A stretch of DNA of 64,000 bases from an uncultured delta proteobacterium (lineage in GTDB: Bacteria; Desulfobacterota; Desulfobacteria; Desulfobacterales; JAFDCJ01): the NCBI GenBank assembly GCA_963769935.1, contig CAVYNY010000021.1, positions 32,001-96,000 on the forward strand. Direction: 5' to 3'. This document shows positions 40,462-49,702 of this stretch, one piece after another (the first letter of the stretch is position 1; every line of letters begins with the position of its first letter). Under the pieces are notes generated by a model, which saw only the letters and a program-made list of their open reading frames with translations, was not told where the DNA came from and did no database searches. Made by a program: the position numbers and the translations under genes.

Positions 40462-41862
40462 ATGGAATCGATTCCCGCGAAACAGACGCCCGTGCTGGTT
40501 GTCGACGATGACGAAGGACTCCTTTTAAGCATTAAAGCAACCCTGGTCAGTGCGGGTTTACCCGAACCGGCACTTGCCTCGGACAGCCGCAATACCTTGG
40601 ATCTGATGCGAACCCATCATTTTCAACTGGTATTGTTGGATCTGATGATGCCGTATCTAAACGGCATCGAGGTGCTGGAAAAAATCAAAAGTGAATTCCC
40701 GGAAACGGAATGCGTGATTGTCAGTGCCAGCGATGAGGTGGCCACTGCAGTGCAGGCCATGACCCTGGGGGCATCCGACTACCTGGTAAAACCCCTGAAC
40801 AGTGAAAAACTTATCGCCCTGGTGAATCGCAGCCTCGAAAAATATAATCTGCAGGACGAACTGGCGCGGTTCGGCCGCCAGAAAGTTTTTGCCGAGTTGA
40901 AGAACCCGGAGGCCTTTGCCGGCATGGTTGCTGAAGATGAGTCCATGGCGTTGGTATTTCATCAGGTTGAAGCTGTCGCCGGCACCGATTACAGCGTGGT
41001 GATCAACGGTGAATCCGGCACCGGCAAGGAGATGCTGGCACGGGTCATACACAAACTGAGCAATCGCTCCAAAGCACCCTTCTATGCCGTCAACATGGCA
41101 TCCTTCAGCAAAACCATATTCGAAGATGAGTTCTTCGGTCATGCCAAAGGCGCCTATACGGATGCTGCAAGTGAGAGACGCGGTTTTTTCGAGGCAGCTC
41201 ACGGGGGTACGCTTTTTCTGGATGAAATCACCGAGTTGGATCCGTCGTTGCAGGCTAAACTGTTAAGGGTCATCGAAGAGCGCGAATTCTATCGGTTGGG
41301 AAGTACTGAAATTAGAAATGTTGATGTCCGCATTGTTGCGGCAACCAATCGCGATATCCATGAGGACATAATTAAAGGTCGCTTTCGGGCCGACCTGTTT
41401 TACCGGATTAACATGTATAACATCAAGATTCCGCCTTTGAGGGAGAGAAAGAATGATATTCTGCCGCTGGCCAGGCATTTTCTTAATCTCCATTCCAGGG
41501 CCAACAACAAGAAAATCCGTGACTTGTCCTCTGAGTTGGCTGAAAGGCTGCTGCGGTGTTCCTTTCTCGGCAACGTCAGAGAGCTTGAAAACATGATAGC
41601 TGCGGCGGTATTGCTGGAAAAGGGCAAGACCCTGACACTGGCTTCCGCCCGCAATTTGTTGCCGTACAACGGACCCGAACGGCGTAAAAATGTTGAACTG
41701 CTCACTCTAGACGAAGTTGAAAGGCGACATATCAAACGGGTTCTCGAGGTTACAGGCGGAAATCGACCGAAAGCGGCTAAGATCTTAGGCATCAATGTTT
41801 CAACCGTATATCGCAAATTGGAAAAATACGACATACCAGACAGCAACCCAACGGAGAATTGA
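40462..41862 (+). CDS. sigma54-dependent response regulator (REC-AAA+-Fis HTH)
   Basis: VDDD/LDLMMP receiver, GESGTGKE, GAYTDA, LFLDEI, FRADLFYR, AAKILGI...VYRKL. Confidence 0.95.
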   Translation: MESIPAKQTPVLVVDDDEGLLLSIKATLVSAGLPEPALASDSRNTLDLMRTHHFQLVLLDLMMPYLNGIEVLEKIKSEFPETECVIVSASDEVATAVQAMTLGASDYLVKPLNSEKLIALVNRSLEKYNLQDELARFGRQKVFAELKNPEAFAGMVAEDESMALVFHQVEAVAGTDYSVVINGESGTGKEMLARVIHKLSNRSKAPFYAVNMASFSKTIFEDEFFGHAKGAYTDAASERRGFFEAAHGGTLFLDEITELDPSLQAKLLRVIEEREFYRLGSTEIRNVDVRIVAATNRDIHEDIIKGRFRADLFYRINMYNIKIPPLRERKNDILPLARHFLNLHSRANNKKIRDLSSELAERLLRCSFLGNVRELENMIAAAVLLEKGKTLTLASARNLLPYNGPERRKNVELLTLDEVERRHIKRVLEVTGGNRPKAAKILGINVSTVYRKLEKYDIPDSNPTEN

Positions 41863-45100: not shown

Positions 45101-45129
45101 ATGTGAAGTTATTTTTGAGTAGGTCCTTA
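45101..45129. mobile_element. Remnant end of the TAA/TTA MITE family
   Basis: ATGTGAAGTTATTTTTGAGTAGGTCCTTA versus ATGTGAAGTTATCTTTGAGTGAGCCCTTA (1921-1949); TTA is the stop of the adjacent gene. Confidence 0.6.
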
Positions 45130-45588
45130 AGATGCGATATAGTCTCCTCTGTAAAATTTGGTTGTTTCCAGTGAGGCGGTAACCAGCGTCTGATTGACGA
45201 TATCTTTGAGTTTCTCGCCATCGGGCAATGTATCCAACACCGGTGCCAGCTTTTCCCTCTGCTTGTCAATTTCTTGGATGATGGGATCAATTTTTTTCAG
45301 GCTATTGCCAGGATCAGACAGCATTTGACGGTAATGATCAAGCAGGTCGATTAAATTTTCCACGCGCTCAGTGGCAACCTGCCGATCCCATCCAAAAGTT
45401 TCCGCCGACCGGATTCCGGACAGGGGATTGACAAAAGTCGTCGACCGCGATCCCGCAACTTCCGGCGGCTTATTTCCAATGGTCTCTTTTAAAATATCAC
45501 CAAATTTTTCGCCGACCGCCGGCTGGGAATCCGTTTTGCCCTCGGTATAAAGATTCTGGAGTATTTGATGGTAATTTTCAATTTTCAT
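45127..45588 (-). CDS. Hypothetical protein, possibly flagellar-associated
   Basis: 153-aa ORF with RBS AAGGA; FGDILKE motif and helical C-terminus ending FYRGDY; lies downstream of cheW. Confidence 0.75.
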   Translation of the reverse strand: MKIENYHQILQNLYTEGKTDSQPAVGEKFGDILKETIGNKPPEVAGSRSTTFVNPLSGIRSAETFGWDRQVATERVENLIDLLDHYRQMLSDPGNSLKKIDPIIQEIDKQREKLAPVLDTLPDGEKLKDIVNQTLVTASLETTKFYRGDYIAS

Positions 45589-46401: not shown

Positions 46402-47142
46402 CTAGCTTTTTGAAATTGATTTCAGCGGTACGCCCAGCACCAGATATGACATAGGCGGTTCCCGCAGCGGATGAACCGAGACCCGAATCGCGCGGCTTCC
46501 GAACGATCCGTTATTAATTAAAATCCGGCAGTCTTCGTTCACCGCAGGCTTTCCAACCGCCATTTTTCTGACCGCCTCAATGACCTTGGGCAGTGAACCG
46601 GAATAAATAATTTTTTCAAGTCCCATGCCCACTAGATCTCTTTGCTGAACACCACATAAGTCGGCACAGAGAGAATTGCCGCCCCACAGGTACAAATCCT
46701 TAAAGACAGCGGCCGGCCCATTAATTTGATGGACGAATTGGATGCGGTGCAAATAGGTTTCGATGTAATAGCGGCAAGTGTTACAGTCCCTACAGCTCAG
46801 CAAACCGCTGTCTTTAAGCGTGAAACAGGGCTGCAGCTGATTCTTAAACGCAATACATTCGCCGCATCCGTGTCCGTGATCAGTGCCGTGCCAGAAATGC
46901 CAACAGGTCTGAAAGCTTTTGTAAATGGGCCCGTTTGAGTTTTCCGGCCACAATTCGGGCGGTATTTTTTGCCCGTTGCTGTTAAGGAAAAACAAAAGGT
47001 CTTCAACCGGAATCGTATAATTTCTTCCCGCCCGATTGGCATGCAATTTTCTGGAGCGAATCCAGTATCCGACGGTGGTGCGCCCCACCCCGCACAGGAC
47101 AGCCGCCTGGGATACCGACAATGTTTTTTTGTTTTCGGCCAT
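46402..47142 (-). CDS. Excisionase/MerR-like HTH protein with Cys-rich middle and PAS-like C-terminus
   Basis: LSVSQAA.LCGVGRTTVGYWIR..KL.A...GRNY.I; seven clustered Cys; N...ADLCG....DLVG...EKII. Confidence 0.8.
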   Translation of the reverse strand: MAENKKTLSVSQAAVLCGVGRTTVGYWIRSRKLHANRAGRNYTIPVEDLLFFLNSNGQKIPPELWPENSNGPIYKSFQTCWHFWHGTDHGHGCGECIAFKNQLQPCFTLKDSGLLSCRDCNTCRYYIETYLHRIQFVHQINGPAAVFKDLYLWGGNSLCADLCGVQQRDLVGMGLEKIIYSGSLPKVIEAVRKMAVGKPAVNEDCRILINNGSFGSRAIRVSVHPLREPPMSYLVLGVPLKSISKS

Positions 47143-47173
47143 TCGTACGATAACTCCTTGCTGACTGGGGCAT

Positions 47174-47200
47174 ATATCGGCAATTCCTCAAAAAACTTGA
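47174..47200 (-). promoter_or_regulatory. sigma28 (FliA)-type promoter for the HTH-cheW unit
   Basis: Minus strand TCAAG-N14-GCCGATAT about 30 bp upstream of the ATG. Confidence 0.75.
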
Positions 47201-47383
47201 TCCAAAATTAGGGAATCCCGGCTGTCAGGCCTTAGAGGCTGAATAAAAAATAAACCAGTCCGGCAGAATTAATGCAATAATTGCCCACCTGTCGGATTTT
47301 TGACGGAATTGCTGCTCAAAACCCACTAGTGGTTCGAAGACAGGCAACATCCTCCAATTCATTTCCGATCCGGCTTATATTCA

Positions 47384-47396
47384 TAACCTGTTGATA
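47384..47396 (-). promoter_or_regulatory. IHF binding site
   Basis: TATCAACAGGTTA matches WATCAANNNNTTR; AT-rich flank. Confidence 0.65.
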
Positions 47397-47457
47397 TGTT
47401 AATGATTTTATTTTTAAATAACCGTGCGGATCAAGTCGTTACTCTGAATTTATCATC

Positions 47458-47473
47458 TGGCACATTAATTGCT
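47458..47473 (+). promoter_or_regulatory. sigma54 -24/-12 promoter
   Basis: TGGCAC-ATTAA-TTGCT. Confidence 0.85.
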
Positions 47474-47483
47474 TTAATAAACA

Positions 47484-47568
47484 TCAAATGGAATGAAGTT
47501 TCCTCCTTTCCTTCATTCCCACCTCCGACTAACCCTGTTAGGCACCCCCCCTAACAGGGTTTTTCTTT
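47484..47568 (+). ncRNA. Candidate sigma54-dependent small RNA with C-rich loops
   Basis: Stem GGAATGAAG/CTTCATTCC with loop TTTCCTCCTTTC, linker CACCTCC, 12-bp terminator stem and U-tract; no plus-strand gene follows. Confidence 0.7.
47531..47568 (+). terminator. Intrinsic terminator
   Basis: AACCCTGTTAGG-CACCCCC-CCTAACAGGGTT-TTTCTTT. Confidence 0.85.
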
Positions 47569-47713
47569 GCAGACAGGTGCATAGTACCCCCCTCAAAGGA
47601 TCAAATTAGGTGTCGAAAGGTGTCGAAAAATTGGCAGTCTGCTATTTGGATCGGCCGGAAAGGGAATAAGAAAGAGGATTTGAAGGCAGCTACGACAATA
47701 AATGATATTTATT

Positions 47714-47914
47714 TCAATTACTTAAACGATTTTTCTGATTTTGACGGTGCTTCTTTTTTGGTTCAAACGCCAGACAGTTATTGCCTTGCATGATACGCCG
47801 CACATCCATCATGGGCAGTCGTCGGCTTTTGAAGCCCATGGCGCGGCACCCATGGGGATGGCTCACTTCCCAGGTCACAAAATAATGAATACATCTGCAG
47901 CAGGTTGGGGGCAT
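47714..47914 (-). CDS. Small Cys-rich protein
   Basis: CCRCIHYFVTWE...PHGC..MGFKS...P...V......C..F pattern; last gene of the flagellar run. Confidence 0.75.
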   Translation of the reverse strand: MPPTCCRCIHYFVTWEVSHPHGCRAMGFKSRRLPMMDVRRIMQGNNCLAFEPKKKHRQNQKNRLSN

Positions 47915-48123
47915 TCGTTCGTTGGGTTTATAGTGTTTATTGCGTTTACTTAGTTGATCGTGATGAATCTTTGGGTTTTGATCGTTTAGATCGTTATGAT
48001 CGTTATGATCGTTTAGTTCGTTATGATCGTCGCCTTAGTTTTCAACCTATTCAACGCAACCAGCCCAGTAAACTTTCACTCGACATTCGGCATTCGGCAT
48101 TCATCATTTGTCAATCGTCATTC
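47915..48123. repeat. Mosaic of 9-, 8- and 7-bp tandem repeats
   Basis: GTTGGGTTT/ATAGTGTTT/ATTGCGTTT; GATCGTTTA/GATCGTTAT units; CATTCGG units. Confidence 0.75.
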
Positions 48124-48125
48124 CG

Positions 48126-48617
48126 CTAACGGTCCCCCGCGCGGTATCTTCGGTTTCCCCCGGTATCAACGACTATCCCCATATTCCGGAGCAGATCGAA
48201 TGCCTCCTCACGCTGGGAGTTGTATCCTTCCCCGCTGACCGCAATGACCGCCTGAATGACTTCATCGCTCAATCCGGCTTGTTTGAGCTCGATTACATCC
48301 TGCGCACTGGTAAACCGCAGGGACTTCATCTGCTGGCCGTAAATGATGGGTTCTGAGGCTTTTAAAAAAGAACTTTCCCGCATCAGCATTCGGAGGGTTT
48401 CTTCCCCCAGACCGGCTTTCTTCATATGCACGATGTCATCGACGCTGAATGCGGCTGTTTCGATCACCTTCTCTTCAGCAATTATCTGGATGGTCAAATC
48501 GCTGATACCGGCTTTTTTCAGCTCAACGACATTTTTGCCGCTCAAGCCTGCGGCCGGGTGGGCGGCAATGAAAAGCATGTTCAAAAAAATTGCAGCGACG
48601 ATTGCTTTTTTTTTCAA
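48126..48617 (-). CDS. Exported protein with three S..D(V/I).E(L/M)K.AG(L/I) repeats
   Basis: Signal peptide; NVVELKKAGISD, DIVHMKKAGLGE, DVIELKQAGLSD. Confidence 0.8.
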   Translation of the reverse strand: MKKKAIVAAIFLNMLFIAAHPAAGLSGKNVVELKKAGISDLTIQIIAEEKVIETAAFSVDDIVHMKKAGLGEETLRMLMRESSFLKASEPIIYGQQMKSLRFTSAQDVIELKQAGLSDEVIQAVIAVSGEGYNSQREEAFDLLRNMGIVVDTGGNRRYRAGDR

Positions 48618-49538: not shown

Positions 49539-49571
49539 GGGATCTCCTTCCGAACCCGGCCAAGCCGGAAT

Positions 49572-49702
49572 TGACTATTGAATATTGAAAATTGAATAAT
49601 TTTTGCAGTCGCTTCGCTCCGTCATTTCTTTGGAAAATTTTTTAAATCGATCCGCCACAGGCGAACCTCAAATATTCAATATTCAATTAAAAATCTTCAA
49701 TC
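49572..49702. repeat. Heptamer palindromic element between flgK and flgL
   Basis: GACTATTGAATATTGAAAATTGAAT...GTCGCTTCGCTCCG...GATCCGCCACAGGCG...AATATTCAATATTCAAT; homolog of 56481-56646. Confidence 0.8.

Follow-up and report, generated by a model that had tools for sequence, protein, structure and literature searches.

A short gap in the flagellar/chemotaxis cluster of a Desulfobacterales genome contains a predicted small RNA gene that belongs to an apparently undescribed but real sRNA family. We infer that the unit of sigma54 promoter, two hairpins and terminator is transcribed into an RNA of approximately 83 nt. Taken as a whole, we favour on balance the reading that this is a FleQ-type-activated, Hfq-independent, trans-acting anti-Shine-Dalgarno (anti-SD) RNA, for which the flagellin leader is the predicted leading target. 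The window analysed here is a stretch of 64,000 nucleotides, positions 32001-96000 of contig C21 (CAVYNY010000021.1) of the source genome G000; the features of the locus are compiled in Table 1.

Table 1. Features at the small RNA locus (coordinates of the window)
Feature	Position	Strand	Evidence or remark
Divergent sigma28-like promoter for HTH_17-cheW (TCAAG ... GCCGATAT)	47174..47200	-	sequence; similar motif in 31/69 homologous loci
14-bp palindrome GTCGGATTTTTGAC, candidate enhancer, FleQ-box-like	47291..47304		41/69 loci
Exact IHF consensus	47384..47396	-	sequence
Sigma54 -24/-12 promoter motif TGGCAC-N5-TTGCT	47458..47473	+	72/74 GTDB loci; 70/77 scorable metagenome matches
Predicted small RNA, ~83-85 nt	47484..47568	+	fold z -6.1; models R1/R2; start placed by the -12 box
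Hairpin 1, near-invariant 9-bp stem, open loop UUUCCUCCUUUC (47499-47510)	47490..47519	+	main anti-SD seed
Single-stranded linker CACCUCCGACU, second anti-SD seed	47520..47530	+	CCUCC present in every aligned member
Intrinsic terminator: 12-bp stem (47531-47561), variable loop, U-tract	47531..47568	+	covariation, U-tract counts

The gap spans 571 bp (47143-47713), close to the approximately 570 bp given in an earlier sequence-only reading, and it is indeed free of + strand genes; the + strand entries of the ORF list are shadow ORFs, none of which looks real. It is bordered by a minus-strand pair of HTH_17 and cheW genes and by the end of a minus-strand run of flgK, flgL and two small genes, all within a flagellar/chemotaxis cluster of approximately 60 kb. 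The palindrome, the IHF consensus and the TGGCAC-N5-TTGCT motif were each found where the sequence-only reading had placed them, and a second TTGCC half-site lies directly upstream of the palindrome (47281-47285). The IHF consensus likely marks a DNA bend between enhancer and promoter. A sigma28-like promoter for the proposed back-to-back operon was recovered as well, called with the sigma28 consensus. Generally, such single motifs are common, with 39 exact sigma54 and 448 IHF consensus sequences in the 8-Mb genome, so that it is conservation which raises the unit above chance; the small RNA element itself is single-copy in its genome.

Some neighbouring features deserve mention in their own right. 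The HTH_17 gene (46402-47142, minus strand), which lies under the sigma28-like promoter and in most loci is arranged back-to-back with the small RNA, encodes an excisionase-type HTH_17 domain joined to a Cys-rich region, with a C-terminal part that could not be assigned. Three conserved minus-strand proteins without a Pfam family above cut-off, a Cys-rich one of 66 aa (47714-47914) and two others of 163 aa (48126-48617) and 153 aa (45127-45588), accompany the flagellar cluster in many relatives. Moreover, further palindrome-like GTCGAAAA..TTGRC words occur 3' of the terminator (47610-47640), facing the convergent gene, and also downstream of many homologs.

Folding of 47484-47575 reproduced the proposed architecture of a 9-bp stem with a 12-nt loop, the linker CACCUCC and a 12-bp stem with a 7-nt loop and U-tract (-30.8 kcal/mol, z -6.1), a stability that was reached in none of 200 shuffles. 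Among 58 distinct aligned rows, 98.7% of the cells pair, and changes on both sides affect 7 of the 12 terminator pairs and 3 of the 9 stem-1 pairs (0/500 shuffles), values that lean toward structure because the alignment was fitted to the model and that include some stem-1 changes from a misaligned bulged variant. The terminator stem thus covaries, and stem 1 is near invariant with at most 4 clean both-side changes among the 58 rows.

The same alignment bears on the idea that the element is only a terminator of, or cis-antisense to, the convergent minus-strand flgK-flgL genes, a CsrA-binding RNA of the minus strand or a small peptide gene. Many loci do show the convergent arrangement, the minus-strand loop contains GGA motifs, and stem 1 contains an ATG. 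However, a U-tract exists on the + strand alone, with at least 5 T within 8 nt after the stem in 72/72 loci scored and at most 4 A ahead of it, and one-sided changes are G-U wobbles on the + strand that would be A-C on the minus strand. Furthermore, the whole unit persists in non-convergent contexts, CsrA was not found in 23 of the 29 carriers tested nor in G000, and the ORF from the start triplet in stem 1 varies between 3 and 99 codons across loci, has no SD and is not conserved. We regard these explanations as extremely improbable. The claim that the + strand carries a small RNA gene of its own, with a sigma54-type promoter, is upheld, with the RNA itself as a prediction from sequence.

A conserved unpaired SD complement, an own terminator and non-coding character, as expected for an anti-SD sRNA, are all present. 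The loop 1 core CUCCUUUC and CCUCC of the linker are kept, whereas loop 2 (CACCCCC here) varies in distant members; hence, the view of the C-rich loops as anti-SD seeds applies to loop 1 and the linker, but not to loop 2 as a third seed. The CCUCCUUUC of loop 1 is identical with the 16S 3' tail of the own genome, the CACCUCC of the linker corresponds to part of this tail too, and opening of loop 1 costs 0.0 kcal/mol. In one member, G174, the loop-1 motif is lost and the linker kept. Pairing of the stem-1 3' arm with AUG was also considered and rejected, since its opening costs 8 kcal/mol and f49 has no CAU.

The near invariance of stem 1 suggests a recognition beyond pairing, which would suit a sponge for another G-rich RNA or a decoy for FlbT or a ribosomal component rather than an mRNA silencer; FlbT and FlaF do come after flagellin in G000. 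However, the rest of the genome contains no long complement of stem 1 and its loop, and the conserved unpaired bases are exactly the anti-SD ones, which makes such a role very improbable in our view. Three sediment metatranscriptome runs of one study, present as contigs only, cover parts of the flanking genes and not the element, and contigs as well as size-selected libraries lose RNAs of 85 nt. In RNA runs, many unrelated contigs are drawn by short intergenic repeats at 47975-48030 (GATCGTT-type units) and 49553-49596 of the window, which probably represent a dispersed repeat family.

Conservation of promoter and loops in relatives was a check named by the sequence-only reading; it was observed for promoter, loop 1 and linker. 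In BLASTN against 60 relatives, the unit matched from promoter to terminator in 15/22 genomes of the same genus and in 4/38 genomes of other families. The seven misses within the genus look like assembly gaps or absence of flagella: flgL lies within approximately 1 kb of a contig end in 2, 2 have no flgL match and 3 no flagellin match. A pattern of hairpin 1 and linker only, from which the promoter was left out, matched 74 GTDB loci, all metagenome-assembled by title and nearly all from Desulfobacterales; 70 are titled Desulfobacterales or deltaproteobacteria, and the other 4 are probably mislabelled, because their flanking genes are 41-80% identical to those of the window. The sigma54 box was nevertheless recovered upstream in 72/74 of these loci, in 71 cases at a distance of 18-27 nt from the anchor; of the two remaining loci, one is cut by a contig end and the other has no box. 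A metagenome scan found at least 120 matches, of which 80 loci were listed; among these, the box precedes 70/77 scorable ones, whereas 2 match by chance and 5 are genuine members that lack it. The members without a sigma54 box (L373, L378, L380, L394, L420 and L079), of which L394 has a TTGACA-like -35, show an apparent promoter swap.

Model R1 recognised 17 true members from 7 families among 151 genomes of the order, its weak matches L048-L052 being dropped as they have neither promoter nor loop. Model R2, run over 151 genomes of the phylum, added one distant member, G205 (47 bits), with a sigma54 box and non-flagellar neighbours. Judged by its title, the Olavius Delta 1 symbiont (L090) carries the RNA too. 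Synteny with HTH_17/cheW and flgL-flgK is seen in most loci, and members in f49, G025, G174 and G205 are placed away from this position. The sequence-only reading recognised no named family, and the Rfam 15 scan agreed: the best match over the element reached 17.1 bits against a gathering threshold of 56.4 and lay on the wrong strand, and 6 divergent loci gave no family match either. Hidden divergent copies were not detected in non-carriers that have the flagellin-leader site described below: in 19 non-carriers, up to 20 kb beyond flgL contained no unit of sigma54 box and C-rich RNA (the unit of G080 was recovered as control), and model R2 gave just terminator-like matches of 26-34 bits in 7/32 genomes. 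In addition, two-hairpin units of other kinds, with comparable terminators and with loops or linkers rich in C and U, were seen at L260 (G212), L268 (G247) and L249/L256/L257 (three in G092), several of them behind sigma70-like boxes; these are possibly further undescribed anti-SD sRNA families.

Regarding its control, the gene shows in its sequence what is expected of a sigma54-dependent sRNA, namely a -24/-12 box that is conserved at the distance of a start site and, upstream of it, a candidate enhancer. The palindrome was found in 41/69 loci with enough upstream DNA, mostly 165-181 bp before the -24 box, with spacings that cluster near 167 and 178 bp and thus about one helical turn apart; it was not found in 28/69. 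Such helical-turn-spaced clusters are the expectation for an enhancer that acts through looping. Its supposed likeness to the FleQ box holds in length and ends, which match the 14-bp GTCAAT-N2-ATTGAC-like box as described in PMC10723142; the GGCA-N4-TGCC motif given for a flagellar regulator of Desulfovibrio in PMC3333781 fits less well. Against a FleQ-type assignment, the strict palindrome pattern had no hit near the two other sigma54 flagellar promoters and occurs at just 7 sites in the genome, 4 of them intergenic. The IHF site, an exact consensus here on the minus strand, is just modestly enriched across homologs, with 29/69 loci at up to one mismatch against approximately 13.5 in shuffles (about 2-fold). 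Three bEBPs are encoded in the cluster. The sequence-only reading pointed to the one in the window (40462-41862), but its helix differs from that of FleQ, whereas a receiver-less bEBP (C21:126188-127240) has a recognition helix, RTTLVEK, identical to that of FleQ, which makes it the likelier activator as far as sequence can tell. This FleQ-type protein of the cluster would switch on the small RNA gene through enhancer looping, an activation that we consider fairly likely.

The proposed tie to motility is reflected in the order sample, in which flgK was found in 17/17 carriers (7 families) versus 80/151 genomes overall; the Fisher p value is 9e-6 by genome and about 0.01 if the 7 families are taken as units, both tallies coming from the same 151-genome draw as judged from identical tallies and handles. 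Conversely, no copy of the small RNA was detected in 63/80 flgK-bearing genomes. Hfq was found in none of 45 genomes nor in the own genome, while a control search detected it in 5/14. Neither CsrA nor FliW was found in G000, and CsrA is present in 6/29 carriers tested. The RNA sits where csrA often comes after flgL, which had raised the idea that it replaces CsrA/FliW; this was rejected, as CsrA occurs in those 6/29 carriers and was not found in 19/21 flagellated non-carriers of other families. Likewise, the element does not resemble a Csr/Rsm protein-sponge RNA, since its + strand loops are pyrimidine-rich and CsrA is present in just 6/29 carriers and not in G000. As a separate observation, flbT and flaF come after a short flagellin gene at C21:131100-132937, an arrangement known from Alphaproteobacteria; this flagellin gene of G000 is frameshifted in the assembly, like several others. 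All 6 tested carriers in which this flagellin type is missing or was not searched for have CsrA, against just 2 of the genomes that possess it, suggesting that the order has two alternative flagellar systems.

The RNA would act in trans and independently of Hfq, its 16S-tail-like loop and linker pairing with Shine-Dalgarno-type sequences. Such pairing would lower target expression and likely tune the construction of the flagellum, and we consider base-pairing repression probable. A genome-wide start-site screen used rough gene calls; a duplex was obtained for 4942 genes, of which the best 500 were rescored for accessibility. The screen was topped by unrelated strong-SD genes, many with signal peptides, as expected for an anti-SD seed, and no flagellar gene was among the top 250. 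Among 67 cluster genes, the strongest conserved complement is in the flagellin leader, with -16 to -18 kcal/mol in 6/7 carriers when the G000 RNA is used throughout and mRNA accessibility ignored; with accessibility, the pairing in G000 amounts to -15.7 kcal/mol. This sigma28-type leader of approximately 140 nt (C21, about 130965-131130) contains a non-initiating GAAAGGAGG, the exact complement of loop 1, approximately 106 nt upstream of the start, at a distance of about 30 nt to the predicted 5' end. For G000 and several relatives, this site is predicted to be displayed in a hairpin loop. If flagellin is targeted directly, the RNA of the early sigma54 stage would hold down the late sigma28 flagellin mRNA through this site.

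However, the site is not restricted to carriers. It is as strong in 2/5 non-carrier clusters, and in its loose form it occurs in 10/11 carriers versus 20/46 non-carriers; the strict form was found in 10/11 carriers versus 10/46 non-carriers, where kin are not independent, and the flagellin leader of G138, cut by a contig end, was left out of these counts. Covariation between loop 1 and the flagellin site was not seen in G080, G039, G025 and G049, and the carrier G049 has a mismatch in the site. Given its presence in non-carriers and the lack of covariation, the site looks older than the RNA. By analogy, it is probably a stabilizer of the STAB-SD type that is bound by the 30S subunit, and the small RNA could have been recruited onto it. 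Flagellin is our leading candidate for a direct target, albeit a tentative one.

These data also give room to a different reading, in which the RNA is a broad anti-SD regulator of strongly translated non-flagellar mRNAs, such as those for periplasmic binding proteins, redox or stress proteins, and is merely co-induced with motility, the leader site being an independent 30S-binding STAB-SD. The top of the target screen, the frequent leader site in non-carriers, often with full 16S complement, the presence of RNase J and the STAB-SD precedent described in PMC4113751 speak for it. But all 17 carriers have flagellar genes, with most copies inside the cluster, and the strict site, with the reservation on kinship made above, prevails among carriers; we rate this reading as unlikely. 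Alternatively, the RNA may stabilize the flagellin leader as a roadblock for RNase J, like RoxS on yflS in B. subtilis (PMC5419742), and raise flagellin output. The distance of the site from the start codon, which pairing would spare, its position near the predicted 5' end and the occurrence of RNase J fit with such a role, whereas RoxS binds the extreme 5' end, the 30S subunit could already hold the site and the site exists without the RNA; altogether, we find this improbable. At the leader, the RNA may thus act with either sign, by destabilizing the mRNA or by RoxS-like protection. In its most specific form, the anti-SD reading says that an early-flagellar sRNA mimicking the 16S tail controls flagellin at a non-initiating SD decoy, where it would compete with the 30S subunit and gate decay by RNase J. 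This we regard as speculative and rather unlikely; an sRNA that competes with 30S for a STAB-SD was not found in the literature searched.

Independently of the small RNA, the sigma28-type leaders of two different flagellin types in Desulfobacterales contain an SD-like, non-initiating site at 90-140 nt ahead of the start, in its loose form in 30/57 genomes (C21:130931-131100 with L131/L168, L133-L196, L277 and L283-L312). By analogy these sites resemble a STAB-SD, and the lineage has RNase J. Across the leaders of G000, non-initiating SD-like motifs are weakly enriched (11 versus 3 in reverse complement and approximately 6 in shuffled sequences, 2802 regions). A small GGCA..TGCC hairpin just ahead of the true SD is common to many flagellin leaders.

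Stand-alone sigma54 sRNAs activated by a bEBP are known, for example the Qrr RNAs. The same wiring as proposed here is described for Pxr from the related group of Myxococcus, which differs by three stem-loops, its place behind nla19 and its control of development (PMC5568312); neither Pxr nor Qrr has an Rfam match to the small RNA. CJnc230/FlmE of Campylobacter jejuni is an RpoN-dependent two-hairpin anti-SD flagellar sRNA that is, as described, processed from flgE mRNA and targets flgM (PMC11187230). In contrast, the RNA reported here stands behind a sigma54 box and an enhancer candidate of its own and presents its main seed in a hairpin loop, and the 67 cluster genes gave no sign of flgM-type targeting; sequence relation to FlmE was judged by the Rfam scan alone. 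With cuckoo/CcsR it shares the anti-SD motif in a hairpin loop, and the likeness proposed by the sequence-only reading holds as an analogy but not beyond. Cuckoo RNAs, as described in PMC4615179, have 2-4 hairpins each with CCUCCUCCC and variable stems, are often multi-copy, depend on a heat-shock sigma factor, bind Hfq and belong to Alphaproteobacteria, whereas here one seed hairpin with CCUCCUUUC and a near-invariant stem stands under sigma54 in single copy, CCUCCUCCC is not in every hairpin loop, loop 2 being variable, Hfq was not found, and the matches belong to Desulfobacterales as judged by title or gene context. For sX13 of Xanthomonas and, in the same source, for RNAIII, C-rich loops are described that act independently of Hfq (PMC3771888); sX13 directs C4/C5 loops against G-runs, whereas the C-run loop is variable here and the conserved seed is the 16S-tail mimic. 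Finally, like that of cry3A (PMC4113751), the flagellin leader is long, has a non-initiating SD-like site close to its 5' end and occurs in a cell with RNase J, and RoxS, which acts at the 5' end of yflS (PMC5419742), is likewise a C-rich sRNA; both of these systems were described in Firmicutes. The small RNA works like FlmE/CJnc230, sX13 and cuckoo, is wired like Pxr and is a member of none of these families.

In the literature searched, with supplementary motif tables and most subscription journals beyond reach, we found no description of this small RNA, and no regulatory RNA was found described for Desulfobacterales, a major group of sediment sulfate reducers. The family is well bounded and comes with a predicted sigma factor, a predicted activator and a candidate target, in host cells without detected Hfq. 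Its action would be one more independent example of sRNA control within a flagellar hierarchy. If the competition at the leader were true, it would represent SD-decoy control in a Gram-negative lineage in which Hfq was not found and CsrA/FliW are mostly missing. The site in the flagellin leader suggests that stabilization of the STAB-SD type may also occur outside Firmicutes.
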